51,156 nt of DNA from Dehalococcoidia bacterium (lineage in GTDB: Bacteria; Chloroflexota; Dehalococcoidia; SZUA-161; SpSt-899): positions 1 through 51,156 of the forward strand of contig JALPYG010000001.1 in the NCBI GenBank assembly GCA_023271215.1, given 5' to 3'. The position numbers were made by a program, and so were the translations under genes. Below are positions 30,893-48,706 of this stretch, one piece after another; within the stretch, counting starts at the first letter, position 1, and each line of letters starts with the position of its first letter. The notes beneath the pieces were generated by a model. The model had not been told where the DNA came from, made no database searches, and was given only the letters and a program-made list of their open reading frames with translations.

Positions 30893-30928
30893 ACTCCTCC
30901 CCCATGAGGGATAGCATCCCTAGTCCGA

Positions 30929-30963
30929 CGGCCCTTCCGAAAGGAAGGGCCGTTTCTTTTTAT
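30929..30963 (+). terminator. intrinsic terminator
   Basis: CGGCCCTTCC-gaaa-GGAAGGGCCG followed by TTTCTTTTTAT. Confidence 0.8.
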
Positions 30964-31215
30964 CCTCAACAGACTATCCCCTAGTGGGGGAAGGATTGAA
31001 CTTATTAGTTCCTCAAGTCGAACAAAAGGACTTTTTGTTTGATAATAAACTTGGAAGCTGAAGCTGAAAGGCGTGAAACAAGCGACTGGACAGCTTAACC
31101 TTAACAACTGAATAATGAAGCCGAAGCCCGAACACTTGCCCAGTCTGAAGCATAAAATATCCCGTAGCCAGGGACAAGCTGACTACGGGAAATCTAACAA
31201 AGGCAGGAACGCACA

Positions 31216-33617: not shown

Positions 33618-33840
33618 TAAAGAGGGGTATTCGTTCCCCAGCGTGGGAGCGGATACCCCTTTCTTTGTCTCCGCCCAGAGTTGGGCAAACCGGGCAAGGC
33701 AATAGGGGTGGCCGCCCCCAGAACTCGCCCAGAATCGGATTCTGGAGCTTCAGTTATTGTCCCGTATGCCCAGCCCGAAGCTGGGGAAGGGGAGGTCTGC
33801 CCAAATCTAAAGGGAAATAACCATAAAAGGCTAATCAATC

Positions 33841-33888
33841 CAGCCCGACCCTGGGCAGTCAGGAAGGGGGAAATCCGCCTGGAAAGGA
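33841..33888 (+). promoter_or_regulatory. leader cassette class A, copy 1 (diverged)
   Basis: CAGCCCGACCCTGGGCAGTCAGGAAGGGGGAAATCCGCCTGGAAAGGA ends 8 nt before ATG 33896. A half-copy sits at 33771-33808. Confidence 0.6.
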
Positions 33889-33895
33889 ACAGAAA

Positions 33896-34087
33896 ATGGA
33901 ATCAAAGGGTTATCCATGGCCGGCGTCAGCGCTTACGGCGCTTGAGATGAGGATCCTCTTTGACCTCAAAGAAGAGACTGGGATCCCGATAACCAGGCTC
34001 CTCTGTGAAGCGGTGCTAGAACTAAAGACGTACGATCAGGAATACATCGACAGATTGAACAACAAAAGAAAAGCAAGTGAGGGATAG
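33896..34087 (+). CDS. small protein, possibly RHH/HTH DNA-binding
   Basis: Preceded by leader cassette copy 1. Segment LEMRILFDLKEETGIPITRLLCEAVLEL. Confidence 0.5.
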   Translation: MESKGYPWPASALTALEMRILFDLKEETGIPITRLLCEAVLELKTYDQEYIDRLNNKRKASEG

Positions 34088-34136
34088 CCCGACCTTGGGC
34101 AAGATGGGAAAGGGAAGGTCTGCGAAAAACAAGGGG
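34086..34136 (+). promoter_or_regulatory. leader cassette class A, copy 2
   Basis: AGCCCGACCTTGGGCAAGATGGGAAAGGGAAGGTCTGCGAAAAACAAGGGG lies upstream of ATG 34145. Confidence 0.6.
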
Positions 34137-34144
34137 TAAAGCAA

Positions 34145-34315
34145 ATGGATAAAAGGCAAACCAGGCGATGGCTTAAAGCCCTAGAGATTGCAGAGAATCT
34201 CTTTGAGGATGAAGGTTACTCCAGCAACTACCTAGAGGAGATTAAGGACTTCATTCTCACAAGCAGGGAAGGTCTATCCGAACCTGAAGGGAAAGGAGAT
34301 GCCCATGCCAGCTAA
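34145..34315 (+). CDS. small hypothetical protein (56 aa)
   Basis: Below the track cut-off. Follows cassette copy 2. The next ORF overlaps its end. Confidence 0.45.
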   Translation: MDKRQTRRWLKALEIAENLFEDEGYSSNYLEEIKDFILTSREGLSEPEGKGDAHAS

Positions 34316-34478
34316 AGACTTGACTGGCAAGACAGTCTATGAGTTAGACTCCGAGGACTTTGAAAAGCTCTTTTGCAGGGGATGTAAAGAGAACGGCGGC
34401 TGTCCCAAAGACCCCAGGACAATGAGCGTGTGTCAAGTCATGATTGACAGCGGGATATGGTATCAAGTCAACCGATAA
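34305..34478 (+). CDS. small Cys-rich protein (57 aa)
   Basis: AAAGGAG lies 6 nt upstream of ATG 34305. Motif FCRGCKENGGCPKD...VCQV. Confidence 0.45.
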   Translation: MPAKDLTGKTVYELDSEDFEKLFCRGCKENGGCPKDPRTMSVCQVMIDSGIWYQVNR

Positions 34479-34494
34479 ATCAGAAGAAGCAATA

Positions 34495-34544
34495 AGCCCG
34501 ACCCTGGGCAAGTCGGGAGGGGGAAAGTTTGCCCGGAAAGGAGG
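34495..34544 (+). promoter_or_regulatory. leader cassette class A, copy 3
   Basis: AGCCCGACCCTGGGCAAGTCGGGAGGGGGAAAGTTTGCCCGGAAAGGAGG lies 9 nt before ATG 34554. Confidence 0.65.
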
Positions 34545-34553
34545 TGATTTGAA

Positions 34554-34829
34554 ATGGGACTCGATATCTCAACCTTCACCACATCGCCCATTGAAGAGCC
34601 GGAATCCCTGGCAGCCTATGAGTTCGCTCAAGCTCTGGCAGGGGAATGCTCTTGTATCGGTGAAGGTATGGCCTTCGGGTGGTTTACCAGAATAGAGGTT
34701 ATGTGGGTGTTAGATGCCCACACTATATCGAAACGTCTGATCCGCGAGGAGAGGGTTCAAATCCAGGACTGGATAAACAGCCTTCCCTGGGATGAGCATG
34801 ACTGCATTCGGCTTTACTTCAACTGGTAA
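34554..34829 (+). CDS. small hypothetical protein
   Basis: Follows cassette copy 3. Confidence 0.55.
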   Translation: MGLDISTFTTSPIEEPESLAAYEFAQALAGECSCIGEGMAFGWFTRIEVMWVLDAHTISKRLIREERVQIQDWINSLPWDEHDCIRLYFNW

Positions 34830-34847
34830 GCGCTAAACATAAGGGAT

Positions 34848-34896
34848 AGCCCGACCCTGGGCAAGTCGGGAACGGGAAGGTCTGCCCGGAAAGGAG
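34848..34896 (+). promoter_or_regulatory. leader cassette class A, copy 4
   Basis: AGCCCGACCCTGGGCAAGTCGGGAACGGGAAGGTCTGCCCGGAAAGGAG lies 6 nt before ATG 34903. Confidence 0.65.
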
Positions 34897-34902
34897 ATAA
34901 AA

Positions 34903-35157
34903 ATGGACGCTAGATTGAGGCAGGAGATTGAGGAGTTATTAGCCAAAGCTACCTTACGAGAATTCTGCACCGACCTGCAGCCCTACTTTAACCGGATTAT
35001 GCCTCTCAATGATGAGGCAGAGGATGCCTTGACCGCTATCTTTCGGGGTTACCTGGCATCATCCTCATCACCCGTCAGGGCAATGTGGAAAGCCTTTATT
35101 GTAGGACAGGCCTGGCAAAGGGTAGTGGATGAAGCTGAGCTGGCAAGCAGGGAGTAG
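34903..35157 (+). CDS. small hypothetical protein
   Basis: Follows cassette copy 4. Confidence 0.55.
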   Translation: MDARLRQEIEELLAKATLREFCTDLQPYFNRIMPLNDEAEDALTAIFRGYLASSSSPVRAMWKAFIVGQAWQRVVDEAELASRE

Positions 35158-35232
35158 AGAGATTAGCGCAAGGAAGGGGCGGGATCGGTAGGGGAACTGC
35201 CCTAAAAATCAAGACAGAAAGGAGGTGAAACC

Positions 35233-35550
35233 ATGCCTATCAGATGGAGTGCCCTCAAGGTGAGTGAGGCTATGGATAGGGTGGAACACCAGATCAACCT
35301 GGCCGAGGTGTTTCTTCCCGAGGCCAGGTCAATAGCAAGCCAGGTCAGGCAAGTCGACAACCTGCCGGGCTACCTGGATGACCGCCTTCGCCGGCTGATC
35401 TATGCGATTGAGCGGCTAGACGAGGTTAAGGCGTCCATAGAAGCCATCCGCAAGGCTATCCCCGACGGAGCGATAGAGGCGGAGCGAAAGCGTCTACGGC
35501 GTGGCAGCCAGCAATCGCTGATCCCTGGACCTGACCAGGGACAGGTCTAA
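35233..35550 (+). CDS. small hypothetical protein, paralogue of 38009..38329
   Basis: The N-terminal MPIRWSALKVSEAMD and C-terminal IEA(I/V)RKAIPDGAIEAERKRLR.GSQQSLI are shared. It also shares the leader GGGGAACT.C.C(C/T)(A/T)AAAATCAAGACAGAAAGGAGGTGAAA. Confidence 0.6.
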   Translation: MPIRWSALKVSEAMDRVEHQINLAEVFLPEARSIASQVRQVDNLPGYLDDRLRRLIYAIERLDEVKASIEAIRKAIPDGAIEAERKRLRRGSQQSLIPGPDQGQV

Positions 35551-35553
35551 GAG

Positions 35554-35602
35554 TTGCTTGGTTTGAAAGGATAGGTCTGCCCAAAATCTGAGAGAAAGGG
35601 GG
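35554..35602 (+). promoter_or_regulatory. leader cassette class B, copy 1
   Basis: TTGCTTGGTTTGAAAGGATAGGTCTGCCCAAAATCTGAGAGAAAGGGGG lies upstream of GTG 35611. Confidence 0.6.
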
Positions 35603-35610
35603 TGATAGAA

Positions 35611-36081
35611 GTGACAAGCCAGTTGAGCCTGTTTGAAGAGGTTGAGGTGATGGGAGAGGTTGAGAAGCCGACGCCGGTAAGGGCGGGGAACCGAGTTGTT
35701 GAAATCCCCCTCCGCAAGAGGCGCAGGGAGGCTCTAAAGAAGCTGGTGGAGCTACTCCGTCAGCTTGAGGGGAAGGACATCTACATCGGTGCCCACTTTG
35801 GCCCACAGAACCACTTCTGGGTAAGGAATCTGAAGTTGGGGCGGTTAAGGGTAGGGAATCTATTGAGTAATGATGGCCTGCCGTCCGTCGTAGTCCTCTG
35901 GGGTAACCGAGAGGGGAGCATCCGGATATTCACCGACCAGGTGGTCAATCTCCGGCAGCAGGAATACCAGGGTTACACTCAGTGGCTGCTCGACTTCTGG
36001 AATGGATTCGGTGCGTATCCCATTGATCCTTACCGACCCAGAGGCTATGTAAGCCTGGAGATTGTCAGGTTTAAGGACTAA
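35611..36081 (+). CDS. hypothetical protein
   Basis: GTG 35611 is better spaced from AAAGGGGG than GTG 35602. Confidence 0.5.
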   Translation: MTSQLSLFEEVEVMGEVEKPTPVRAGNRVVEIPLRKRRREALKKLVELLRQLEGKDIYIGAHFGPQNHFWVRNLKLGRLRVGNLLSNDGLPSVVVLWGNREGSIRIFTDQVVNLRQQEYQGYTQWLLDFWNGFGAYPIDPYRPRGYVSLEIVRFKD

Positions 36082-36104
36082 CCAAAGTCTGACCTTCAGA
36101 GTTA

Positions 36105-36206
36105 AGCCCGGCCTTGGGCAAGCTGGGAAAGGGAAAATCTGCCCGGAAGGAGAAGGCCGAGGAATTTTGAAGGGGTAACTCTGCCCAAAATCTGAAAGAA
36201 AGGAGG
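36105..36206 (+). promoter_or_regulatory. leader cassette class A copy 5 immediately followed by class B copy 2
   Basis: AGCCCGGCCTTGGGCAAGCTGGGAAAGGGAAAATCTGCCCGGAAGGAG, then TTTTGAAGGGGTAACTCTGCCCAAAATCTGAAAGAAAGGAGG. Two TATAAT hexamers follow at 36214-36228. Confidence 0.6.
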
Positions 36207-36244
36207 TCAACAAAGGATATAATGATATAATGAAAGGAGGAGAG

Positions 36245-36439
36245 ATGAGTATAAATCTAGAAGATAAGTTGAATGAGGCTGAGCGTAAAGCTCACGATGC
36301 GCTCAGCCGCTACAAGTTCATAATGTTTGGGTATTGGGCGAGTATATGGACGCATCTCAACGACGTTGGAGAGTTCAAAAGGCCAAATCCCTTCCGGGGG
36401 TATATCGCCTTGGCTCGACAATTAAAGGAGGAGAAATGA
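36245..36439 (+). CDS. small hypothetical protein
   Basis: ATG 36245 follows AAAGGAGG. The ATG 36230 alternative lies inside that SD. Confidence 0.5.
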   Translation: MSINLEDKLNEAERKAHDALSRYKFIMFGYWASIWTHLNDVGEFKRPNPFRGYIALARQLKEEK

Positions 36440-36565
36440 TGTAAAGAAGAACTAGCAGAGACCAAAAAAACAAGAAAGAGGAAGGAGGAGAGATGACAGT
36501 GTAAAAGAATTAGCCAAAGGCCAATCAAGAGGCCAATCAAGCAAAAAGAGAAAGGAGGAAGAGAA

Positions 36566-36874
36566 ATGAAAACCAAGAGAACTAAACTAACCAAGCAAAT
36601 GTACCTCGATGCTTTGGCGCGCGATGACGAAACTCTCGCCCTCATACGGCGCAATCGCCCCGAGGGGGAGGGGATGCTCGATACTCCTGAAAAGCGTGCC
36701 TGCTTCCGCGTGGGCTTTGACGCTGGACCAGGAGCCCAGACCGGGCGCTTCAGCCATCCTGACACGGAGAAGGAGCGCTTTCACGGGTGGCGGGCCCTCC
36801 ATCCCAAGAAGGCGACCCCGAATGACGCCTTCTACGCTCAGCTGGGAGCGAATCTGGCTGAAGCGTGGGAATAG
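36566..36874 (+). CDS. small hypothetical protein
   Basis: GAAAGGAGG SD. The overlapping ORF 36609..36962 is judged spurious. Confidence 0.5.
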   Translation: MKTKRTKLTKQMYLDALARDDETLALIRRNRPEGEGMLDTPEKRACFRVGFDAGPGAQTGRFSHPDTEKERFHGWRALHPKKATPNDAFYAQLGANLAEAWE

Positions 36875-37022
36875 AGTGGGGAATTGGGGGCCGAGCGGTT
36901 CAAATCCGCCGGCCCGAGAAGCGCATGATGGGGCTATAGGGGAATCAAATGGGGCTGGTTAACCGGTACTCACGGCCTCATAAGCCGGTTAGGGGCCTCC
37001 GGGTGAACAAAAGGCGCCAGCC

Positions 37023-37070
37023 AGCCCGACCCTGGGCAAGTCGGGAAGGGGGAAGTCTGCCCGAAAGGAG
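37023..37070 (+). promoter_or_regulatory. leader cassette class A, copy 6 (drives a 5-codon uORF)
   Basis: AGCCCGACCCTGGGCAAGTCGGGAAGGGGGAAGTCTGCCCGAAAGGAGG is followed by ATG AGA ACA AGG GAC TAG at 37076-37093. Confidence 0.6.
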
Positions 37071-37131
37071 GTGAGATGAGAACAAGGGACTAGTCAGAGA
37101 CCAAGAGCAACAAAAAGGAAAAGGAGGAGAG

Positions 37132-38338: not shown

Positions 38339-38383
38339 GGTTCCAACGGATAGCTCTGCCCAAAATCTGAGAGAAAGGAGAGG
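38339..38383 (+). promoter_or_regulatory. leader cassette class B, copy 3
   Basis: GGTTCCAACGGATAGCTCTGCCCAAAATCTGAGAGAAAGGAGAGG lies upstream of ATG 38387. Confidence 0.6.
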
Positions 38384-38386
38384 AAC

Positions 38387-38857
38387 ATGACAAGTATCTT
38401 TTTCATCGGGCACAATGGGGAACGAGTTGTGGATTCCATGACGACGCTCAAACAGATAGAGGAAGTCAAAAAACTGGAATGCACAATGGAACATGAGGGT
38501 GAGCGAATCAGATGGGATATGCTTGATGACCCTACAGAACCTCGATCGCTGTTTCAAGCTATTGTAGCTGATCGCAGGTTGCGAGTCGATCAGAACACGC
38601 TGATGGCTGATCGGCCACCAATCGCCGTTGTGACTGCTGTCGCTGGCAAAGCAGTGCGCATGGAGTTCTATGAAGGCCACGATGCGCTTCGCCTGACCCA
38701 CGATTTGCGCACCAAGGAGTTGCAGGGAAAGCCAGTGCCTCGCTGGCTGACATCTGACCCGCAAGCTTATAACCCATACCGGTTCCTGCAATCAATTGGG
38801 TTCCCTGTACCTGATGAGTTGATTGAAGCTAAGGATAATGAGCAGAAAACAACTTGA
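38387..38857 (+). CDS. hypothetical protein
   Basis: Follows class B copy 3. Confidence 0.55.
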   Translation: MTSIFFIGHNGERVVDSMTTLKQIEEVKKLECTMEHEGERIRWDMLDDPTEPRSLFQAIVADRRLRVDQNTLMADRPPIAVVTAVAGKAVRMEFYEGHDALRLTHDLRTKELQGKPVPRWLTSDPQAYNPYRFLQSIGFPVPDELIEAKDNEQKTT

Positions 38858-38866
38858 GACATGACA

Positions 38867-38917
38867 GCTTGCCTAGTTTGAAAGGATAGGTCTGCCCAAA
38901 ATCTCAAGTAAAGGAGG
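38867..38917 (+). promoter_or_regulatory. leader cassette class B, copy 4
   Basis: GCTTGCCTAGTTTGAAAGGATAGGTCTGCCCAAAATCTCAAGTAAAGGAGG lies upstream of TTG 38925. It is nearly identical to copy 1. Confidence 0.6.
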
Positions 38918-38924
38918 TCAACAA

Positions 38925-39413
38925 TTGAATACAACCAAGACAATCGAGAAAGGCATCTCCGAGTTAGTGGGTGTCTTCACTGATCCTATCATTGCGTATC
39001 CCAGCCCATGGAGGGAAGATATCCCCCAGTGGATCAAGGATCAAATAAAGATGGAACGCCTCGTGATGAACATGAAGGTTCTCAGGGGAGAACAGCCAAC
39101 CGGGACCGATGCCGAAGCCCTGGCCTACCTTATCCCGGCCAGCCTCGAGCACCCGATCGGTAGAGACTGGACGGATATCTACATGTATCTGGTTACCACA
39201 GTATCTATCAGGGCTGGTAAAGAGCTACCGGAGAATATCCGAGTGGAGACCCTCAGCGAATACCTCATGCGAAAGCTCAATCACCTCAAGTCCTGGCTGT
39301 ATCAGCAGCGAGTGAAGGCAAGGCTGGAGCGAGAGCGAGGCGAGAGGCGAAAAATGAAAGAGGAAGAGATAGCGCGGAAAAGGACAGAACAGTTGGCGCT
39401 ATTCGAGTTCTAG
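38925..39413 (+). CDS. hypothetical protein with basic/acidic coiled C-terminus (last gene of the element)
   Basis: TTG start follows AAAGGAGG. A strong terminator follows the gene. Confidence 0.55.
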   Translation: MNTTKTIEKGISELVGVFTDPIIAYPSPWREDIPQWIKDQIKMERLVMNMKVLRGEQPTGTDAEALAYLIPASLEHPIGRDWTDIYMYLVTTVSIRAGKELPENIRVETLSEYLMRKLNHLKSWLYQQRVKARLERERGERRKMKEEEIARKRTEQLALFEF

Positions 39414-39434
39414 TTTGCCAAACTTGGGGAATCA

Positions 39435-39471
39435 GGGGCCGGGGGTTCAACTCCCCCGGCCCCCTTTTTTT
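39435..39471 (+). terminator. strong intrinsic terminator with T-loop-like loop
   Basis: GGGGCCGGGGG-TTCAACT-CCCCCGGCCCC (11-bp perfect stem), then C and T7. Confidence 0.85.
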
Positions 39472-39740
39472 GTCCAAGATAACAAAACAGGCTTTTGTTC
39501 TATTAAGCCGTACTTCTTCTAAGAGTGCGGTCCCTCTCTACGTGCCTTCGTCTCTCCATCTTGCACGAACCTCAGTCCGCCGATGTTTTTGTCAATGAAA
39601 AAGGCGCCAGTCTGACGGTATATTCTCTCTTCCTTCCCAAAAAGCTACCGTAAATTGAAAAGCTGAAGGCCGAGGCTAAACCTGAGTCAATATCTGTGCA
39701 AATTTGCAAACCCGCCAGGTTTTTCCCAAAAACTCACCTA

Positions 39741-39998
39741 TTACCCATCGGTACAACCTTCCAGTGTCTCTAAACGCTTCCCAGCCCAGTCCTCAACCTG
39801 ATTGAGCCGGTGATCACCCAGGGAAAGGATGTGGGTCAACCAGATCGCGCTCGTCCAGCCCAGGCTCATCCCGTGCCAGTTGCCATGCGTAGGAAAGCAT
39901 TGATCCAACGTGGGCTGAACGCCCATCCTTTCCATTTGCGCCAACAAAACAGGAATGTCTTCCACCAGTTCGTCGGTTATGGTAAGATCCTCGTTCAT
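39741..39998 (-). pseudogene. N-terminal fragment of an IS1634/IS4-type transposase (DUF4277-like)
   Basis: The 85 aa DIPVLLAQMERMGVQPTLDQCFPTHGNWHGMSLGWTSAIWLTHILSLGDHRLNQVEDW resemble the N-terminal module of these ~500-aa transposases. The rest is missing. Confidence 0.55.
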
Positions 39999-40299
39999 AA
40001 TACCTACATCTTACCATCATTTCCTATCTTTGTCAGATTTCGAGCGAACCATGGGACGTCTGTCTTAACAGTTCTCTCAATAACCGCTAGAGAAATTAAT
40101 GAATTATACCAAGTCTCATAGATAAGGCATTTTGTGGCCTGTTTATCGCACCAGTCGTTCCTGTTCCTGTAGAATGGACAATCATCACTCGCCGGACACA
40201 GTCTTGAATCCTCCTTTCATTAAATCTCCTTTCCATGATCTTCTCATTTCACTTAATCGCTCTTCGTCTAACGGCTACTCAGCGAAACATGCAAGATTA

Positions 40300-40968
40300 T
40301 TAAACTTCATCAATCCACCTTATCCCTAATCGCTCTAGAGTTGGCTTTACGGACCTTTCACAAATGGTTCCCCAATCCTCGGCTTCTATTCCCCTGCAAC
40401 AAGAAAAGAGGTCTATTTTTAAGGGGATATTTCCATATTTAGATTCAAACGTGATCGCCCCTTCGATTGACCATTCATTCTTAGAATTTGGCAACTCTAT
40501 TATCCTGTCTGCTATCACTGAGAATTCCTCTTCACGATGCCTTATTTCTTTAGCCAATGTCCAAAGGGAAAAATCGATGATAGGATTAAAGAAGATCGTA
40601 ATAGAAAGCTCCCCCAAAGCCTTTAGCTTCCCCTCACTTGTGTGAGGACGAGTTAGGTTACTGGCCCATTCATCACCTTTCTCCCACCTCATAAGTTGTA
40701 GAGGAATATTTTTGTAAAGGAATATACAATCGATACACTTAATATGGACATCATCAAAACCTCTACTATATAGCAATAGAGTGAAAGCCAAAGGGGGAAA
40801 TGAGTGCCCCGAGGGTCCTGTCCGAAGCTCTCCCTTCACCCTTTCAATTGCGATCTTTTCTTGCAAAGCATCTCTTGCCCTTTTCTTAATCTTTTCTATA
40901 GGGATCCCAAATAATGGTTTAATTATTGGTCCCACCATAGGATTGACAAGCAAAGCACCAAGATCCAT
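40300..40968 (-). CDS. orphan hypothetical protein in an AT-rich island
   Basis: 222-aa ORF. Local composition is visibly more AT-rich than the flanks. No motif recognised. Confidence 0.55.
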   Translation of the reverse strand: MDLGALLVNPMVGPIIKPLFGIPIEKIKKRARDALQEKIAIERVKGELRTGPSGHSFPPLAFTLLLYSRGFDDVHIKCIDCIFLYKNIPLQLMRWEKGDEWASNLTRPHTSEGKLKALGELSITIFFNPIIDFSLWTLAKEIRHREEEFSVIADRIIELPNSKNEWSIEGAITFESKYGNIPLKIDLFSCCRGIEAEDWGTICERSVKPTLERLGIRWIDEV

Positions 40969-41382
40969 CTAAACTTTCCTCTCAACCAAGGATATCTTTA
41001 CTTTGGTTCCTCCTTTGTTTCCGTTGCTGTCTCTATCAACAGAATAGAGAAACCCGATTCTTTTATCAAGGTCTTTCAATCCCAACGCCGCCTATGCCTT
41101 GTGGAAATGCCATGATTGACGCTCCTAGGGAAAACCTGATGAACAGACAGGCTGCCCGCAGGTTTACCCTTGACAAGTTGAGGGGTAAACCCCATCCGCT
41201 TGGAAAAGTCTTCGACTTTCCCACAATCATTTGGATAACTGCTCCGCAGTTACCCACATCCCACAAGGTCGATTATTACTGATTCAATAGGTCAAAGAGC
41301 TAAAATCATACAAACTTGGGATAAAGCCGATAATTGAGTACAATGCCGTGCCTAGTTTTCAGCCCGGCCACACATTTTTGCC

Positions 41383-41748
41383 TCAACAAGGATGGAAATC
41401 ATCTGGCCCATCCTTAATCACAGCATACTTGAGTCCAGGCCCTCTGCTCCGAATCGTGTGGCACATCCCTATCGGTACATGAATGACGGTAGCCCTATTC
41501 AAGGATTCAATCACTTGGACATTATTCTCCGACCCTTGGCGAGTCACAAAATCAAACTCGGCGTCGCAGACGATCGTCCACTCGTTGGTCGTAAGGGGGT
41601 TGTGAATAGGAAAACCATGGTAGGGTGCTAACTGGTGCATTTGATAATACTTACCCCTTTTAGTCTGCAACTCCCGCATCAGGAGAGACACAGCCTCTTC
41701 AAGTGAATGACAGTTCTCGAACTCTCGGATCGTATGCCACGCCTTCAT
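41383..41748 (-). CDS. hypothetical protein (possibly small beta-barrel/cupin-like)
   Basis: Internal ATG 41748 follows GGAGGCAAAGAGTT. The longer 41805 start overlaps the upstream gene. Confidence 0.45.
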   Translation of the reverse strand: MKAWHTIREFENCHSLEEAVSLLMRELQTKRGKYYQMHQLAPYHGFPIHNPLTTNEWTIVCDAEFDFVTRQGSENNVQVIESLNRATVIHVPIGMCHTIRSRGPGLKYAVIKDGPDDFHPC

Positions 41749-41776
41749 AACTCTTTGCCTCCATGTCCACCTCCGT

Positions 41777-42151
41777 TTATGGGAAGAAAGTGTCAGCGGG
41801 ATCATACGGAGGTGAGTTTATGGCCAATAGCTGGAGTGTCGTCCGGCCAGAGTTCTTAATCGTATGGACACATCCTGGTGGAATGAGTACAGCATAACCC
41901 TGAGAGACGCTGTAGGCATTTTCCCCGATGGTAACTTCGCCTTGGCCTTCGAGAATGAAGTAGATCTCTTCAGTCTGCCGGTGCAAGTGAAGTTGCGCTG
42001 CCCGGCCTTCGTCTATGTTCACTTGTGCAAGATTTAGCCTTTGAGCATCCGTATTCTTCCTATCGATGAGCTCCCACACAAGGCCGCAATACCCTTGTAT
42101 CGCGGCTATCTCCTTTGCAGCAACAACTTTGGGCTTAGGCCCAGTGGCCAC
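41777..42151 (-). CDS. cupin-domain protein
   Basis: GTG 42151 follows GAGAGGAGGGG just after the pyrE stop. HLHRQTEEIYFILEGQGEVTIGENAYSVSQGYAVLIPPGCVHTIKNSG shows cupin motifs 1 and 2. Confidence 0.7.
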   Translation of the reverse strand: MATGPKPKVVAAKEIAAIQGYCGLVWELIDRKNTDAQRLNLAQVNIDEGRAAQLHLHRQTEEIYFILEGQGEVTIGENAYSVSQGYAVLIPPGCVHTIKNSGRTTLQLLAINSPPYDPADTFFP

Positions 42152-42168
42152 TCGGTATACCCCTCCTC

Positions 42169-42795
42169 TCAGGTTTGGGCACTCTCCAAATAGTCCATAG
42201 TTTTGCCATATTGTTCTTGGCTGATCTTTCCTGAATCGACATAGAACTTGAGCACTTCCTTCAGCTTGAAAGCAGTATGGCAACCATAACCACGTTTCTT
42301 GAGTTCTTCAACGCCACCTTGTTCTCGATCCATAAGAACCGCTACATCACCTACCTTGAGACCATTCTCTTCAAGAACAGCAATCGCTTCTAGTTTGCTA
42401 TCTGCCTGCGTAATTAGGTCATCAATCAAGAGGGCAACCTGTCCTTTCTTGAAAGCTCCATCAACTGGGCGTTTCATACCATGGCCCTTCTCTTCCCTTC
42501 GCGGTGAAATCATGGGGACTCTTGTCAAATGAGACAGGACAGCCACAATTGGTGTTGCTGCTGTCGGGATATCAGCGTAGACATCGAACTTAAGTCCTTC
42601 GGTTAGCTCCTCACAAACCTCGACCGCAGAATCCATGACGTCAGGAAACGACCTCAGTAATCGCAAGTCAATGTAAATGGGAGACAACGGAGCGTCCGGC
42701 TTTTTCTCGTGCAATTTCAGCTTGAACGCCCCGAACTTGATGGCACCTATATCAAACAGTTGTAGTGCAAGCTTTTTCTTTCTATCTGTTAGCAC
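42169..42795 (-). CDS. pyrE: orotate phosphoribosyltransferase (UMP-synthase-like type)
   Basis: IGAIKFGAFKLKLHEKKPDAPLSPIYIDLR, a PRPP loop VALLIDDLITQADS, LMDREQGG, and a C-terminal helix colinear with the OPRT half of eukaryotic UMPS. Confidence 0.85.
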   Translation of the reverse strand: MLTDRKKKLALQLFDIGAIKFGAFKLKLHEKKPDAPLSPIYIDLRLLRSFPDVMDSAVEVCEELTEGLKFDVYADIPTAATPIVAVLSHLTRVPMISPRREEKGHGMKRPVDGAFKKGQVALLIDDLITQADSKLEAIAVLEENGLKVGDVAVLMDREQGGVEELKKRGYGCHTAFKLKEVLKFYVDSGKISQEQYGKTMDYLESAQT

Positions 42796-42832
42796 TTTGC
42801 AGCCCCCTTCCGTTAGAATTTGATGTCAGAAC

Positions 42833-43582
42833 TCACGGTTTCGCCAATGCTGCTGCAATTTCTTCTGCAACCCGTCTGGCCGCATCCACAGGCGTGCCGA
42901 TTTGAGCTGGTGGCTTAGTTATGGGTCGCCCAATAACCACGTATGAAGCTCCATTTTTGATTGCCTCGCCCGGCGTCATTATTCTCTTTTGGTCTTGGGT
43001 AGCAGCCCAGGAAGGTCGGACGCCGGGCGTTACAATCAAGATTTGCCTTGAAGCATGACTGCGGATAGCTATGATTTCCTGAGGTGAGGCGATTACGCCA
43101 TCCAGCCCTGCCTTTTCAGCGAGCTTAGTCAAGTGAACAACTTGCGACTCGATGTCCCCAGGAATCTGCAACTGCTCCTTCATAGTTGCTTGGTCAATAC
43201 TGGTAAGGATAGTAACGCCAAGAACCAATGGCCGCTCTACCTGCAATTTACGCGCTTCTTCCGTAGCTGCTTCGAGAGCAAGTTTCATCATTTCAACTCC
43301 ACCCATTGCGTGAACATTAAACATTCGTACTGCTAACCTTGTCACGCCTCTTGATGCCCCAGCAACCGTGTTGGGAATATCATTAAACTTTCCGTCGTAG
43401 AAAACTTTCCCCCCCAGCTCAGCTACCTTTTGCACTATCCCGACACCTTCCCATGTGAGCAATTCCAGGCCTATTTTGAAGAGACCAACGTGCCCCTTCA
43501 GTGTTCGAACCAGTTCTAGCGCCTCCAGTTCAGTTGGCACATCCAGCGCCACAATAATCCGCTCATGAGTTGAGTCCAGCAT
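42833..43582 (-). CDS. pyrF: orotidine 5'-phosphate decarboxylase
   Basis: Motifs IIVALDV, LFKIGLEL, DGKFNDIPNTV, NVHAMGG, VTPGVRP and YVVIGRPI. AAGGAGG SD. Confidence 0.9.
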   Translation of the reverse strand: MLDSTHERIIVALDVPTELEALELVRTLKGHVGLFKIGLELLTWEGVGIVQKVAELGGKVFYDGKFNDIPNTVAGASRGVTRLAVRMFNVHAMGGVEMMKLALEAATEEARKLQVERPLVLGVTILTSIDQATMKEQLQIPGDIESQVVHLTKLAEKAGLDGVIASPQEIIAIRSHASRQILIVTPGVRPSWAATQDQKRIMTPGEAIKNGASYVVIGRPITKPPAQIGTPVDAARRVAEEIAAALAKP

Positions 43583-43604
43583 ACCAAGGCCTCCTTCTAA
43601 TCTT

Positions 43605-46600
43605 TCAGTGAGGCTGAATTTTGCGCCAACGCGCTGCGACGCTCTTTTTCTGACTCAAGTCGTCGACATCCTGGGGATCTATGCTCTTTTTGACAGGAAG
43701 CTCCTGACGCGCCAGGGCAATAGTATTCAAATAGAGCTCCGTGAGTACCAAATCTATTACCTCGTTTGGGATACCCTGGGCCCCCACAAAGTTAATAGGG
43801 AATCCATCTCCAAGAAGTAGAATCTTCTTGTCTTGTTGCATCAGTACATATTCAGTACCCACGACCTCTTTATCTACGGCTTTCGATACAGACCGCTTCG
43901 ATAGAGTCTTCAGAATATCAGGGCTAATTTCCTCTTGGTCTGATGAGACACTGACCAGCACGCTATCGGCCTGCAAGCGCCGTATCTCATCCGCGTGGAT
44001 TGAGGTGTTCCCAGTAGCACCAAGTATTAGCCAGCATTTCTCTGCTAATCTGGAAAGGCTCTCCTCATCTATGCAACCAGCAATTCGAGCCGCGGCTAGT
44101 CTCTGAGGGTCTCTATCATAGACGTGAACAACCATTGGAATCTTCCTCAGTTTCTCTGCAAGAGGGCGTCCTATGTTTCCGTAACCGATCACACCGGCGT
44201 GTTGACCGCAGAAGTTTTTGTTCGGTAGCATTCGCCTGATGTTCTGAATGGCAGCGTCAGCGACATGCGGCGATTCCATCTCCCTTTTGATGGTGCTCTC
44301 CGCGACATCCCGATAGGGGATCCGCATATGCATATTCATCTCCGCCAGCCGAGTCCTCACCCTTTCAACCCCCTTGGTGGTCTGTTCTACTACACCCCTG
44401 AATAGTTTAATGTCACCGAGATACTGTTTGTGTATAAGAGGGGTAAGATAGCCGCCATCCTCAACGATTATGATTTGCTTCTTCTCAGTTTTCTTGGCGG
44501 TCGAAACTACAAGGTCTAGCGCTTGCTCCACCTGATTCAGCGGGGAAAGCGCGTACCCCAGCCCCTTGAGCTGTCTTTCTACCTCTATGCCGTGCTTGTA
44601 TGGATACAACTTATAAATCAGGTGTACATTGTGCGGGCCGACCTGCACTCTCTTCATCGCCAATAGAAAGCCGTATAGGTCTTCCACAAGGTGCAGAATG
44701 AAAAGAAATCGAAAGTTGGAAAGGTCGGTACCCAATCGCTTCTCTTCTTTGGAATACTCGTCCAGAAGTTGCAAAGTCTCCATTGGTGCCAACTGATCAA
44801 GCGTGTTGGCGGCACCTGCCCCTTTGCTTGGGAGCGAGGACGCCTCGCCTCTGCCCACGTCCCATTGAACTTCCAGTACTCTTTCTTGAACAGTGGCTTT
44901 CGCGGCTACGTATTCTTCGCAAGTATAGGCCAGCTCTTGTGCAGTTTTCGCTAGCTCCTCTGCAATGTAGAGGCCACCCGGGCCAACCCCCGCCGCCCTG
45001 GTCAAGAACTGCTGCTTTTGTTCCAGTTCTTGCCGGCGCATCGGGCCAGCCTGGCGATGCCTACCCAGGCACATGCTGATGTGCAGTGGAAGCACAGTGG
45101 TAGGTTGAACTCGTTCGCTTGTCTCTTGCAGCACACGAATCGCAGCGGTGAAACCTTTTTTTGAATCATCAAAGACTACCAGCTTCCCGTTGCCTTCCTC
45201 CACACAAACTTTACCTCCAGATTCCTCGATAGTAGCTGGGAGTTCGTCAGTGCAATACTTGCTTACCCTATGTATCTCAAGGGGGGACAGAGAAGGGAAA
45301 CTGGCACGCAATTCATCCGTGCGGATATACATGAATACAGAGCCTTCAATTTGGGCCCATGGCTCGGCAAGATTGTTCAGATTTACAACCCTTAATGGGT
45401 CGACCTCCAAAGTTGATTCGGGTGCGGGCAATTCGCTCTTAAAAACTCGGCATATATCCTCGTAAAGCCTGCCGAGAGGGGCTAGTAACGAGCGCAAGAA
45501 AGCAAAACTCAGAGATTCGTCACTGATCGAAAAGGGTGCTAGCAATTCCTCTGATGTTACCAGACCCGCGGATGCTTCTCTTACTCTAGCGAGATAATAG
45601 TCTAGTTTATTCTTCTTTTCATGTTCGTCTCGTCTATCAGAAATATTGAATTCCTCAACCCTGGAGAATATATATTTGGTCATCGTGGTGACGGCTTTCA
45701 TTAATTGGCCCAGGCGCTTCAGGAACAGTAGTCGGGGGGATAGACTGTCTTGTGGAGCTATGCGGCTTAACATCCTGCTCCCAAGCTTCAACAGCACGAT
45801 GTCGTCCTGGTCCTTTATCATCTGATCCAGTTCTCTTCTCGTATCTGCGACCCTCTCATATCGTGTTACTTTGCCAACAATCTCGCCAGTGTCGCCGATA
45901 GCCTGTAAGACCATCACTTCGGCCCAGGTTATTGTCTTATCGAAGCCTTCTGCCTTGCGACCATTAAACCTCCTGTTGCAGAGGTCAAGAAAACGCCGGA
46001 ACGCGCGTTCCCACAACACAAGATTATGATGAGCATATTTGTAAGTGCTTTCTTCGTCAAAACAGGCCGACAGAGTTAATAGATTGTCCACAGCAGGTCG
46101 CTTTGCCCCAGCCTCCAATCTGTTAAAAATCGCCGAATAAACCTGCAAGTATCCGTCAATATTTGCAAGCTCATTTTCATCATAGTAGTCAGAAACCACT
46201 TTCTGCCAGCCTTTGCTGGGTATCCAACGTTCTCGGCGTCGGCCTGCGGGCGGTTTCGACTTTATGAATGCTTCTCCATCGCCGACCAGTTCATACAGAT
46301 TTCCACCACGTTCTATGGCGCTCGTGGAACTGGGAATCCGCGGCAATGGCCCGAATGGGCCAGCAGATGCCTCCCAAGAGGCCCATTCTCGCCTTTCCGA
46401 CTTTTTCAGCCAATCAAGGATTAGGCAAGCCATTACCTTGCAGGCCAGGAATGGCTCGACTCCGTCCTTTTGTGTTGGGCAATACTTCATCAACCGGTCT
46501 AGGAGAAAAGACACGAGGAATTTGTCTCGCCTAAAACGATCTATGGCTGGATCCAGTGCTCTGGAGTCTTCGTGGCCCACCTGCTCCGGGGGGGTTCCTG

Positions 46601-48218
46601 GTGCTGGTTCCCCTGGGCCGTAAGCCCTTCTAAACTTAAATATCCTGTCACTTAGTCTGGTCTTCAGGTTAACAGGCACGATTAGAGTCCTGTCTAGCCC
46701 CAAATCTAATGCAAAGCTAACTTCCCATGGCATGAGATCCCCTTCTACTCGTTGGCAGATCTCTGAGAATGTCAGCCCTTGCTTCTCCCGCTCGTGCTCT
46801 TGCACAAGCAGGTTTGTGACTGGCAGAATGTGCCGCACCGCTTCCAACTGCCTGCTTGCTATTAGATCTTGGGAAAAGAATGAATCAAGTGTTTTGTCCT
46901 GCTTATCAAACATTCTGCGCTGATGTGCAATGCTCGGATGCAGCTTCACAACCTTACTTAAGTATTGTATTATGCACTCGGCAAGCGTCTTGCCCAACTC
47001 AGGCCCGTAGGAATATTCCAAATCCTCGCGGTTAATGAACGGGTCGACGAGCGATACTTGGAATACGCTGCCTTTACTATTCATACGGCTTAGTAGCTGT
47101 TCCAGCATCATTTGGCTAAGATTTAGCGAGAGGTCTCTATAGCAGGCTTGGGCTTTTTGCTCTTCTGAAAGCAGGTCATACTTAAGTCCCATCTCTCTCA
47201 AATTGATTGGAAGGTGGCTATCTCGCTCATCATTATCGAAATAAGTGTCAATACTAAATGTGGCTTCTGGCATGGTCAAACCTAAGACTCCGAAGCTATC
47301 GGTTCCTAAGTCGTAATAGAACCTGAACTTGATCACGCCATCCTCAAAGTTAAGCACAATAGGAAGATCAGCCATCTCGGTATCCAGCGCGACAAAGTTC
47401 GGGCAATCGAGTGTAATGGTGACGATTCCGTTCTCTTCTGCAATAGACGGAACAACGAAAACAGTTCCTAGCTCGGCTAGGAATTCAAGGAATTCTTTTA
47501 GCCCCCTGGGTTTCTTCTTGCCACTAAAGGCAAGGAATATGGTGAAATGATCTGTATCCTGAGTCCGCCCTCTCAACAACAGATGTTCAGTGAGTTCTGC
47601 ACAGGCCTTAGTAAAGTCATGACCAGCTAGACTCATCCATATTCGAGCCGTCTGATCCTGAGGCACTGGCTTTACAGGAATAAACGACTGGCGGTCGACA
47701 AATGCGAAGGTGCGAACTGTAGCCCCCCGGTCTTCAAGATATTTTCGTTTTTCATAAAGTTTATGTCCATGCTGCTTAGAATCATCCACCAGCGCAATAT
47801 ATTTGCCGCTTATCTCCACATCGGGCATTAGTTCAAGCGCCTGGAAGTTGCAGACAATACCCTCATGACCTGATAGTGAGTGTACCAACTCGGCAAACCA
47901 TAATTGGCCTCTACGTTCCAACGAAGCTAGAATATCGGGCTTGGTTTCACATATCTCCTGTGCATACTCGCGGGAAGCCGGTCCGTATTTTGCCTCCCAG
48001 GCCGACCTTCTGTTCGCCATTGAACCGGCAACTGATACCCTAGCTAGTTGTGAGGCGTTCTGAGCTAGCCACTTGTCAATAGCGTCCTTTGAGAACCGCC
48101 ATTGGTTGCCGATCTTAGTTGCCTTTATCTCAGCCCTTTGAATCATTCGATAAACGGTCATATGCGATAAGCGAAGATACCATGCCACCTCATCTAGAGT
48201 AAGTAAGCGATCCTCCAT
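43605..48218 (-). CDS. 1537-aa multidomain protein: excisionase/MerR-type HTH, PRTase-like domain, long helical middle with a degenerate nucleotide-cyclase-like segment, C-terminal AdoHcy-hydrolase-like NAD domain
   Basis: N-terminal HTH LTLDEVAWYLRLSHMTVYRMIQRAEIKATKIGNQWRF. PRTase-like GKYIALVDDSKQHGHKL. C-terminal IIVEDGGYLTPLIH, GVVEQTTKGVERV and GVIGYGNIGRPLAEKL are colinear with SAHH DDGGD, EETTTGV and GYGDVGKG. Confidence 0.85.
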   Translation of the reverse strand: MEDRLLTLDEVAWYLRLSHMTVYRMIQRAEIKATKIGNQWRFSKDAIDKWLAQNASQLARVSVAGSMANRRSAWEAKYGPASREYAQEICETKPDILASLERRGQLWFAELVHSLSGHEGIVCNFQALELMPDVEISGKYIALVDDSKQHGHKLYEKRKYLEDRGATVRTFAFVDRQSFIPVKPVPQDQTARIWMSLAGHDFTKACAELTEHLLLRGRTQDTDHFTIFLAFSGKKKPRGLKEFLEFLAELGTVFVVPSIAEENGIVTITLDCPNFVALDTEMADLPIVLNFEDGVIKFRFYYDLGTDSFGVLGLTMPEATFSIDTYFDNDERDSHLPINLREMGLKYDLLSEEQKAQACYRDLSLNLSQMMLEQLLSRMNSKGSVFQVSLVDPFINREDLEYSYGPELGKTLAECIIQYLSKVVKLHPSIAHQRRMFDKQDKTLDSFFSQDLIASRQLEAVRHILPVTNLLVQEHEREKQGLTFSEICQRVEGDLMPWEVSFALDLGLDRTLIVPVNLKTRLSDRIFKFRRAYGPGEPAPGTPPEQVGHEDSRALDPAIDRFRRDKFLVSFLLDRLMKYCPTQKDGVEPFLACKVMACLILDWLKKSERREWASWEASAGPFGPLPRIPSSTSAIERGGNLYELVGDGEAFIKSKPPAGRRRERWIPSKGWQKVVSDYYDENELANIDGYLQVYSAIFNRLEAGAKRPAVDNLLTLSACFDEESTYKYAHHNLVLWERAFRRFLDLCNRRFNGRKAEGFDKTITWAEVMVLQAIGDTGEIVGKVTRYERVADTRRELDQMIKDQDDIVLLKLGSRMLSRIAPQDSLSPRLLFLKRLGQLMKAVTTMTKYIFSRVEEFNISDRRDEHEKKNKLDYYLARVREASAGLVTSEELLAPFSISDESLSFAFLRSLLAPLGRLYEDICRVFKSELPAPESTLEVDPLRVVNLNNLAEPWAQIEGSVFMYIRTDELRASFPSLSPLEIHRVSKYCTDELPATIEESGGKVCVEEGNGKLVVFDDSKKGFTAAIRVLQETSERVQPTTVLPLHISMCLGRHRQAGPMRRQELEQKQQFLTRAAGVGPGGLYIAEELAKTAQELAYTCEEYVAAKATVQERVLEVQWDVGRGEASSLPSKGAGAANTLDQLAPMETLQLLDEYSKEEKRLGTDLSNFRFLFILHLVEDLYGFLLAMKRVQVGPHNVHLIYKLYPYKHGIEVERQLKGLGYALSPLNQVEQALDLVVSTAKKTEKKQIIIVEDGGYLTPLIHKQYLGDIKLFRGVVEQTTKGVERVRTRLAEMNMHMRIPYRDVAESTIKREMESPHVADAAIQNIRRMLPNKNFCGQHAGVIGYGNIGRPLAEKLRKIPMVVHVYDRDPQRLAAARIAGCIDEESLSRLAEKCWLILGATGNTSIHADEIRRLQADSVLVSVSSDQEEISPDILKTLSKRSVSKAVDKEVVGTEYVLMQQDKKILLLGDGFPINFVGAQGIPNEVIDLVLTELYLNTIALARQELPVKKSIDPQDVDDLSQKKSVAARWRKIQPH

Positions 48219-48242
48219 GTTTTCCTCCTGACACTGTTGTTA

Positions 48243-48271
48243 ATTATAGTTAATCATTGACAAGAAGTCAA
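48243..48271 (-). promoter_or_regulatory. near-consensus sigma70 promoter of the giant gene with overlapping palindrome
   Basis: On the minus strand: TTGACT (48271-48266), a 17-nt spacer, then TATAAT (48248-48243), about 25 nt upstream of ATG 48218. The inverted repeat TTGAC-AAGAA-GTCAA overlaps the -35. Confidence 0.65.
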
Positions 48272-48370
48272 GTCTCTCTTTTGCGTCTTTATGGCATCGA
48301 TCAGATAGGGGATTAGCAATAGGCTATTTCTTCAACCTGACCCGGACGAGCCGGAACCAAAAAGTTTTCC

Positions 48371-48400
48371 ATTTTGGGCAAGACTTCAGATTTTGGGGCC
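48371..48400 (-). promoter_or_regulatory. copy of the element's class B box outside the element
   Basis: The minus strand reads GGCCCCAAAATCTGAAGTCTTGCCCAAAATGG. CCCAAAATCTGAA is a 13-nt exact match to 36184-36196, and TGCCCAAAAT is a second half-copy. Confidence 0.5.
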
Positions 48401-48706
48401 TAACAAAACGCCCTTTTGTTCAATGAGACAACAAACCAGTAAGTTACCCGACTCAACTCAGATCTGACACAGTGAAACAGGTTACCGAGAAGGTGAGAAC
48501 CATAATAAAGCGACAATCGTCGGTGGCCCAGGGGGTGGTCAACTTGGATGAAGAACACCTGGGTCAATAACAGGGCCGACCAGGAATCGGCATCGCTGAA
48601 TGTTTATTTCAGCGCAGTCGGCCACCTGATGATTCCTCATATTTCTTGAGGTCATCTGTAGTGGAGATAGCGAATAGCGGAATCCCCGTCCGTGTGCATG
48701 CCAGTG

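Follow-up and report, generated by a model that had tools for sequence, protein, structure and literature searches.

A fragment of a mobile element's leader motif may lie at an attachment-type palindrome upstream of a 1537-aa HTH gene in a Dehalococcoidia bacterium

Why a short motif from the leaders of a virus-like element should recur upstream of a giant gene beyond the end of that element, and whether it could still act there, is the question raised by the minus strand at 48.37 kb of the window, the 51,156-nt stretch of DNA from a Dehalococcoidia bacterium that was analysed here. The initial annotation had described at this place a 13-nt exact match to one of the element's class B boxes and a second half-site, upstream of a near-consensus promoter of a 1537-aa HTH protein, and had offered a shared regulator-binding site or a scar of an older related element as explanations. 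These sequence features were all recovered. The minus strand of 48369-48400 reads GGCCCCAAAATCTGAAGTCTTGCCCAAAATGG, as had been quoted, with a length of 32 nt that runs 2 nt past the 30-nt range originally assigned to it. CCCAAAATCTGAA occurs exactly at 36184-36196 on the plus strand and at 48385-48397 on the minus strand, and TGCCCAAAAT occurs exactly at 48371-48380 on the minus strand and in all four class B cassettes. The promoter (48271-48243 on the minus strand) has the arrangement TTGACT-17-TATAAT with a score of 11/12, and the HTH_17 domain of the giant protein was located at residues 5-54. The coordinates of the features are collected in Table 1.

Table 1. Features of the window that bear on the box pair at 48.37 kb
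Feature	Coordinates	Strand	Description
1537-aa protein	43605..48218	-	N-terminal HTH_17 (excisionase family); weak PRTase-like loop 124-180; adenosylhomocysteinase-like NAD domain 1243-1519
Giant-gene promoter	48239..48271	-	TTGACT 48271-48266, TATAAT 48248-48243; promoter scan
Att core of integrated element	39481..39505	+	AACAAAACAGGCTTTTGTTCTATTA; empty sites L083, L085; ends of L059, L061
48.4-kb palindrome	48401..48421		TAACAAAACGCCCTTTTGTTC, att-core type; strain recombination boundary
Third palindrome	31021..31039		Inside element; between terminator 30927-30954 and promoter-like site 31087-31116 heading small-gene module
Block	39481..48419		8.9 kb between two att-type palindromes; giant gene, pyrF, divergent pyrE, cupin gene, low-GC ORFs, 85-aa ORF 39741..39998, 245-nt non-coding tail
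Box copy 1	48385..48397	-	CCCAAAATCTGAA, class B unit over its 3'-terminal 13 nt; 5' GTCTG changed to AGGCC
Box copy 2	48371..48384	-	GTCTTGCCCAAAAT, class B unit over its 5'-terminal 13 nt, plus one inserted T; 3' CTGAA changed to GGAAA
63-nt segment	48339..48401	-	Holds both boxes, AGG on either side; in window and L083-L085, missing in L003 (pairwise alignment)
Class B leader unit	35574..35593	+	Upstream of 35602..36081
Class B leader unit	36178..36197	+	Copy with exact 13-mer
Class B leader unit	38353..38372	+	Upstream of 38387..38857
Class B leader unit	38889..38908	+	Upstream of 38925..39413, the element's last gene

Taken alone, the 13-mer CCCAAAATCTGAA is at chance level: 17 exact 13-mers common to the element and the flank were counted in an all-against-all comparison, versus 13.7 expected, and the chance figure of 0.002 given initially holds for a 13-mer named beforehand but not for such a comparison. 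A single 20-nt class B unit aligned to the flank gave z = 2.4, and none of the single pairwise alignments of the box site to 33.5-39.5 kb beat the shuffles (best score 16; shuffles 13.4 ± 1.4, maximum 19.5). The pair, in contrast, does exceed chance. When two 18-nt units (GTCTGCCCAAAATCTGAA) are joined head to tail, their junction is matched by the minus strand of 48371-48397 at 26 of 27 positions with one inserted T, and the dimer-junction score was 24 versus 12.4 ± 1.2 for shuffles (maximum 17; z = 9.5). Nine class B 8-mers and 11 class B 7-mers are contained in the same interval, versus shuffle maxima of 7 and 8, respectively, and this cluster was reached by none of 400 shuffles. From the dimer-junction score and the k-mer cluster, it follows that the resemblance of the box pair to class B is genuine, and the link between box and element is firmer than had been stated at the outset. 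The random scatter of the box considered in the initial annotation was not found: the best dimer-junction score in about 66 kb of other, related host DNA was 12, with no comparable match, and only two further 10-mers of the box occur in the flank, both within coding regions.

In composition, the box pair corresponds to roughly one and a half class B units (18-19 nt) in head-to-tail order. Its two copies are direct repeats 19 nt apart that represent complementary ends of the unit; each has lost one end, and the 14 nt invariant in the leaders are kept whole by neither. The family-wide core TGCCCAAAA is intact in copy 2 and has one mismatch in copy 1 (CCCCAAAA). Homology of the site to the element stops at about 27-31 nt. 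Several ordinary identities of the site were rejected: a structured RNA or riboswitch (fold z = +0.39; no match in Rfam), a tandem repeat (none found by TRF), and a MITE or dispersed repeat, as the tandem-box pattern gave seven genome and eight metagenome matches in public collections, all unrelated and from other taxa, and the 63-nt insert has no terminal inverted repeats by inspection. The string GCCCAAAA occurs three times in the flank versus 0.36 expected, and a genome-wide excess of it was rejected on the basis of the 22 kb of relatives' host flanks, in which it has no copies. A LexA box was also rejected, since the region upstream of lexA in L060 has TGTTC-N3-GAACA, which is another arrangement; the sequence concerned, TGTTCATAGAACA at L060:8725-8745, lies upstream of lexA-imuB-dnaE2 in a Dehalococcoidia genome and is itself a candidate LexA box.

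Within the element, a cassette precedes most of the small genes at 33.8-39.4 kb. Class A, with six copies, consists of a hairpin region ending GTCTGCCC, followed by GGAAAGGAGG, and class B, with four copies and two variants, reads ...GGATAGGTCTGCCCAAAATCTGAGAGAAAGGAGG. All the element copies are on the coding (+) strand in short intergenic spacers, 8-20 nt 5' of long AGAAAGGAGGTGA-type Shine-Dalgarno sequences, and the class B motif is abundant in relatives of the element from other hosts (L059, L061, L060). Since the class A cassette in L061 ends GTCTGCCCAAAAAGGAGG, classes A and B have the GTCTGCCC core in common. The consensus fold of class A is modest (-14.7 kcal/mol; three pairs with compensatory changes), and a consensus RNA fold of class B was rejected at an energy of -0.12 kcal/mol. 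As a separate observation, the class A cassettes (window 33838-37085; L059:639-705; L061:2803-2869) have two small hairpins, and GTCTGCCC is the 3' arm of the second one, directly 5' of the Shine-Dalgarno sequence. A scan of the coding strand from the promoter-like site at 31.09 kb to the strong terminator at 39.44 kb (39435-39463) gave a single sigma-70-like match, a weak one of 9/12; with so little internal promoter sequence, the cassettes are most simply read as putative internal leaders of a polycistronic mRNA. A sigma-70 promoter inside class B was rejected, both by its poor hexamer fit on inspection and by the promoter scan, which found none there. The terminator-like hairpins at 39435-39463, 36888-36916 and L064:10517-10543 were observed to resemble tRNA minihelices, with an acceptor-like stem and a T-arm with a TTCAACT, TTCAAAT or TTCGAAT loop; no tRNA was found in the window by ARAGORN.

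The element copies share a single orientation, directly precede the start regions of unrelated genes and are kept in relatives, whereas the copy at 48.4 kb has no ribosome-binding site and start codon a few bases 3' of it. No Shine-Dalgarno sequence or start codon was found 3' of the box pair, the sole ATG opening a 19-codon frame, and the whole site lies upstream of the promoter. Because of these two features and the incomplete 14-mer, the box pair is probably inert.

The element itself is a virus-like integrated element of about 47 kb, and is widespread in Dehalococcoidia and undescribed. The window begins within it. More than 385 homologs were found for its last gene (38925..39413), and those nearest to it bear the organism name Dehalococcoidia bacterium; close relatives of the element end at differing chromosomal places. 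The assembly of one relative, L062/L063 (ENA scaffold_175), is a concatemer whose period is 46,740 bp, which implies a circular or terminally redundant genome, and HTH_17 genes and a tyrosine integrase lie just past the last gene of this relative. In IMG/VR, one distant relative was found by protein search, and by DNA pattern there were none or single matches at chance level. No tailed-phage hallmark genes were recognised in the element, no integrase family match was found among its scanned ORFs, and no integrase-sized ORF was found at 1-4.7 kb, which corresponds to the integrase site of L062, upstream of the MCM-like ATPase. The reading of the 31.0-39.5-kb module as a separate integrative element was rejected, its 292-aa first gene being no integrase. 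Some further features of this family were recorded. A prokaryotic ubiquitin-like, E2, JAB and ThiF gene set occupies in L062/L063 the place of the window's small leader-bearing genes. The 934-aa protein encoded at 26506-29310 is split by an intein with a LAGLIDADG homing endonuclease. About 0.9 kb at 1040-1930 of the window is non-coding and cytosine-poor with degenerate direct repeats, e.g. GTGAAGYGAAGTRAAGGCRGT (a 107-nt unit three times and a 31-nt unit five times; GC skew up to +0.45), and may serve the element as a replication origin or an iteron array.

The integration site of the element was located with the sister-strain contigs L083, L084 and L085, which are those of the second member of the giant protein's cluster and come from other assemblies. 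L083 and L085 represent empty sites. Their identity to the window is about 100% between 49207 (L083) or 48419 (L085) and 39481, past which unrelated DNA takes the place of the window's element. This divergence places the element-host junction at 39480|39481, identifies AACAAAACAGGCTTTTGTTCTATTA as the att core, and makes the 245-nt non-coding tail host-side DNA. The same 25 nt terminate the element in L059 and L061, ahead of differing flanks. The left end of the element (attL) is off the contig, so that arm comparisons cover the right arm; the left junction is predicted to read ...CCGTTGTGAGGATCA and then the core. In the right arm, which spans the 66 nt from the last stop codon to the core (39414-39480), neither a class B unit nor significant similarity to the 63-nt segment was found.

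The core belongs to a palindrome type, AACAAAA-N5-TTTTGTT, that occurs three times in the window (31021, 39481, 48402) versus 0.00 expected. The arms of the 48.4-kb copy are identical to those of the core (TAACAAAAC-GCCC-TTTTGTTC), with 20/25 positions shared overall by hand count, whereas its centre of 4-5 nt has GCCC versus AGGC in the proven core. Box 1 starts 3 nt from this palindrome; two direct repeats with a spacing of 19 nt thereby adjoin core-identical arms, an arrangement that may be that of an att arm, and integration is known at the 39481 core alone. That the palindrome is a dif/Xer site was rejected, since strains lacking the element have two copies, 9 kb from each other. The internal palindrome (31015-31065) was seen to resemble the 48.4-kb site past the palindrome itself (TGAG...TAAGTT; z = 5.8), and its other flank (ATCAAACAAAA) is identical to the host-side sequence at the empty attB of L083.

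Between the 39.48-kb and 48.4-kb palindromes, the DNA behaves as a discrete unit between strains. The block is about 100% identical in L083 and L085; L084 matches it at 100% between 48419 and 41292, the end of that contig, but identity drops to 66-77% beyond 48420, and a type I R-M system is found there instead of the GNAT gene; 48419 is also where contig L085 starts. The 48.4-kb palindrome is thus a boundary of genetic exchange between strains, with the boxes at the inner edge of the block, and the earlier description of the giant gene as a chromosomal gene outside the element does not simply hold. Since L083 and L085 have no element at 39.48 kb and yet carry an identical box pair, the box fragment does not come from the resident insertion at that site. 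No integrase domain was detected within the block, and it may be ordinary chromosome between two hot spots, because its pyrF passes the equivalog cut-off. At 40-41 kb the GC content is low (0.41), and there are two ORFs of 85 aa and 222 aa without family assignment, the former (39741-39998, beside the att tail) having no Pfam match. Outside the block, an ORF of the group II intron reverse transcriptase type, assigned by sequence inspection, was noted at the contig end (50366-51079).

The giant gene travels in restricted company. Only eight homologs of its protein were found among 5.8 billion proteins, and the gene order giant gene, OMP decarboxylase, PRTase is present in all eight homolog loci and in the three sister-strain loci, with a cupin gene next in six of the loci that extend far enough. 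This rare cassette (window 41777-48218; L001-L004, L080, L081, L083-L085) has a pyrF that passes the equivalog cut-off and a pyrE-like PRTase that stays below the cut-offs, and its neighbours vary, R-M systems, an HNH gene and a tRNA gene being among them. The HTH is nearly invariant in seven orthologs (38-50 of 55 residues identical), and the box pair is absent from all six orthologous upstream regions (L001, L002, L003, L004, L080, L081). The suggestion that the giant protein's own HTH binds the box finds no support in this pattern. The promoter carries repeats of its own, namely a direct ATTAAC (48254-48249 and 48244-48239, 10 nt apart) and an inverted TTGAC..GTCAA. Six of the seven orthologous loci keep the promoter block TTGACnTTTTATCAAT.ATTAACTAT.ATTAACAA (five orthologs with invariant columns, and also L080), and the promoter is almost invariant though the ortholog proteins are only 35-83% identical. 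Since the promoter repeats are conserved together with the HTH and the box pair is not, the promoter-embedded repeats are probably the operator of the HTH_17 domain, predicted to be autoregulatory.

L003 is the only ortholog with an alignable upstream region, and it retains the palindrome and the promoter but lacks exactly 63 nt (48339-48401), flanked by AGG, that hold both boxes in the window. The segment and both boxes are 100% identical in L083, L084 and L085. The indel may be a gain in the strain group of the window or a loss from L003. The upstream region is a mosaic: from -125 to +25 it is 87% identical to L003 and 60% identical to L001, whereas in the gene body the identity is 54-80% to L003 and, for most of the length, 84-95% to L001. 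The alignments with L001 and L003 place a recombination breakpoint near the giant gene start, at 48093-48343 of the window. The 63-nt segment has no significant similarity to the right end of the resident element, to the flanks of the 31-kb site or to the tail, and a remnant of the element's right end was rejected accordingly. A remnant of element genes was rejected likewise, as blastx of the intergenic region and tail against the element ORFs gave E > 0.8 for every match.

We consider there to be an even chance that the box pair is DNA of the element family left at a second att-type site, where it is probably inert. A member of the family would have deposited a scar or arm remnant at this second site, 8.9 kb from the integration core of the element and itself a boundary of strain exchange. 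In the element, the class B unit would act in cis as the 5' portion of an mRNA leader, with a long Shine-Dalgarno sequence following within a few bases; its chromosomal counterpart would now be non-functional, and the giant gene would be controlled through the repeats in its own conserved promoter. Of the two explanations offered initially, the scar fits better, since the boxes abut a palindrome of the att-core type and lie in a lineage-specific segment of 63 nt. Against it stand the shortness of the homology (at most 27-31 nt), the dissimilarity of the 63-nt segment to the compared parts of the element, the GCCC centre and the lack of protein-level remnants, so that the extended DNA or protein homology to element genes by which prophage remnants are judged is missing. 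Moreover, no element copy has a head-to-tail unit pair, the segment could have been lost from L003, L004 has a weak AGGACCCCTAAATTGA at a similar place, and the retention of TGCCCAAAA in copy 2 and of CCCCAAAA in copy 1 is a pattern that selection for binding would also give. Such selection would suit the main rival, a tentative reading, possible but doubtful, in which the boxes are live putative protein-binding repeats beside an att-type core, as arm-type integrase sites, excisionase-like (HTH_17) sites or stoperator-like repressor sites; one element protein would then bind class A and class B leaders, and the 8.9-kb block could be moved or regulated by element machinery. Direct repeats beside a core are the usual layout of att arms in lambda-type systems, and this layout is what the 19-nt spacing right beside the core-type palindrome recalls. 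In favour of such live sites are also the family core, intact in copy 2 and with one mismatch in copy 1, the orientation of the boxes to the downstream gene as in the element, the small HTH_17 proteins and tyrosine integrase encoded by relatives just past the att region, and the position of the block, without a detected integrase domain, between two core-type palindromes. On the other side, the right arm of the element has no class B unit or significant similarity to the 63 nt, neither copy keeps the invariant 14 nt of the leaders, L003 has palindrome and promoter without boxes, and the tight Shine-Dalgarno coupling of the element copies suggests a role at the RNA level. A particular form of this idea, in which the boxes would be working putative sites for an excisionase-family or integrase protein of the element that also binds the class A and B leaders, and the block an integrase-less satellite borrowing att core and protein, we regard as unlikely.

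The remaining readings are weaker still. That the box is an old cis-element of the giant gene's upstream region, lost from L003 by deletion between AGG repeats and copied by, or converged upon by, the element leaders, is rather improbable. It could draw on AGGACCCCTAAATTGA about 13 nt past the palindrome of L004, on one inverted CCCAAAATC 80 nt upstream of the palindrome of L003 and on the excess of GCCCAAAA in the flank, but the L004 and L003 matches are at noise level (best unit score there 11), the window position orthologous to the L003 copy has no box, and the motif is missing in L001, L002, L080 and L081. Its abundance in element relatives of other hosts (L059, L061, L060) points instead to the element as the source. 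Binding of the boxes by the HTH_17 domain of the giant protein, as a form of autoregulation from an upstream site, would agree with their orientation, which is that of the gene, and with their distance of 100-130 nt from the -35 hexamer, on its upstream side; yet the HTH is near-invariant in seven orthologs while the boxes are confined to the strain group of the window, and it is the promoter block with the ATTAAC direct repeats that co-varies with the HTH, which makes such binding very improbable. Coincidence, in the form of an A-rich 13-mer and a local duplication, gains from the chance-rate 13-mer matches, the z of 2.4 for a single unit and the non-significant pairwise alignments. However, the copies cover complementary ends of the unit, and a duplication would therefore require an ancestral full 18-mer; the cluster test (0/400) and the dimer test (z = 9.5) also oppose it, as does a second element-linked motif, the att-type palindrome, 3 nt away, and we give it hardly any credence.

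If the box pair is a leftover of the element family, it is in itself a small piece of a mobile element at a recombination hot spot and an object of an ordinary kind. Its value is that of a marker: it led to the 25-nt palindromic att core of the element, defined by empty sites in sister strains, and it exposed a giant-gene cassette between two such sites, possibly mobile and discrete between strains. Should an element protein bind the boxes, the locus would offer a tractable satellite-like island that has att and regulatory sites in common with a virus, from a phylum in which little is known about the biology of mobile elements; and if the block were such a satellite, the expression or mobility of its giant HTH_17/PRTase-like/AdoHcy-hydrolase-like protein, pyrF and pyrE-like gene would be tied to the state of the element.

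Among known systems, lambda-type attachment sites are approached in that a core palindrome is common to element and host sites, direct repeats adjoin it, and relatives have a tyrosine integrase and excisionase-family HTH genes; the 48.4-kb site differs in a centre unlike the proven core and the right arm of the element in having no repeats, and the 48.4-kb site is a candidate att only. Tandem accretion and integrase-less, cis-mobilizable islands at one att are known from ICESt1/CIME of Streptococcus thermophilus and from the ssrA island arrays of Dehalococcoides. A similar picture is given here by a virus-like element beside an 8.9-kb block, with segments bounded by one att-type sequence and the block a unit between strains, but the block has a pyrF that passes the equivalog cut-off, and it is a candidate island whose excision is a prediction. 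Stoperators are many asymmetric intergenic sites oriented with transcription, and are proven repressor sites at the DNA level. The element motif likewise forms many asymmetric sites in short intergenic spaces, all along transcription, whereas its cassettes are tightly coupled to Shine-Dalgarno sequences and are known here from sequence, not as proven repressor sites. The stoperators of mycobacteriophage L5 and Cluster A are mentioned in PMC3203893, which also describes the SAS and ESAS of Cluster K mycobacteriophages, whose function is likewise unknown and for which a role in translation is suspected (PMC3203893). The SAS and ESAS appear to be the closest described analogue of the element cassettes. 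As with SAS, the class A and B motif is short, asymmetric, in one orientation and just upstream of the starts of many unrelated non-structural genes, and as with the extended SAS, a subset, class A, has an upstream inverted repeat or hairpin (PMC3203893). The element motif differs in its sequence (GTCTGCCC with or without AAAATCTGA), in its host, a Dehalococcoidia bacterium, and in lying 5' of the Shine-Dalgarno sequence, which SAS contain; SAS also have next to no copies in host DNA, while a fragment of the present motif is found on the host side. The box pair and its context are therefore of known kinds, a leader-motif system and accretion at an att site.
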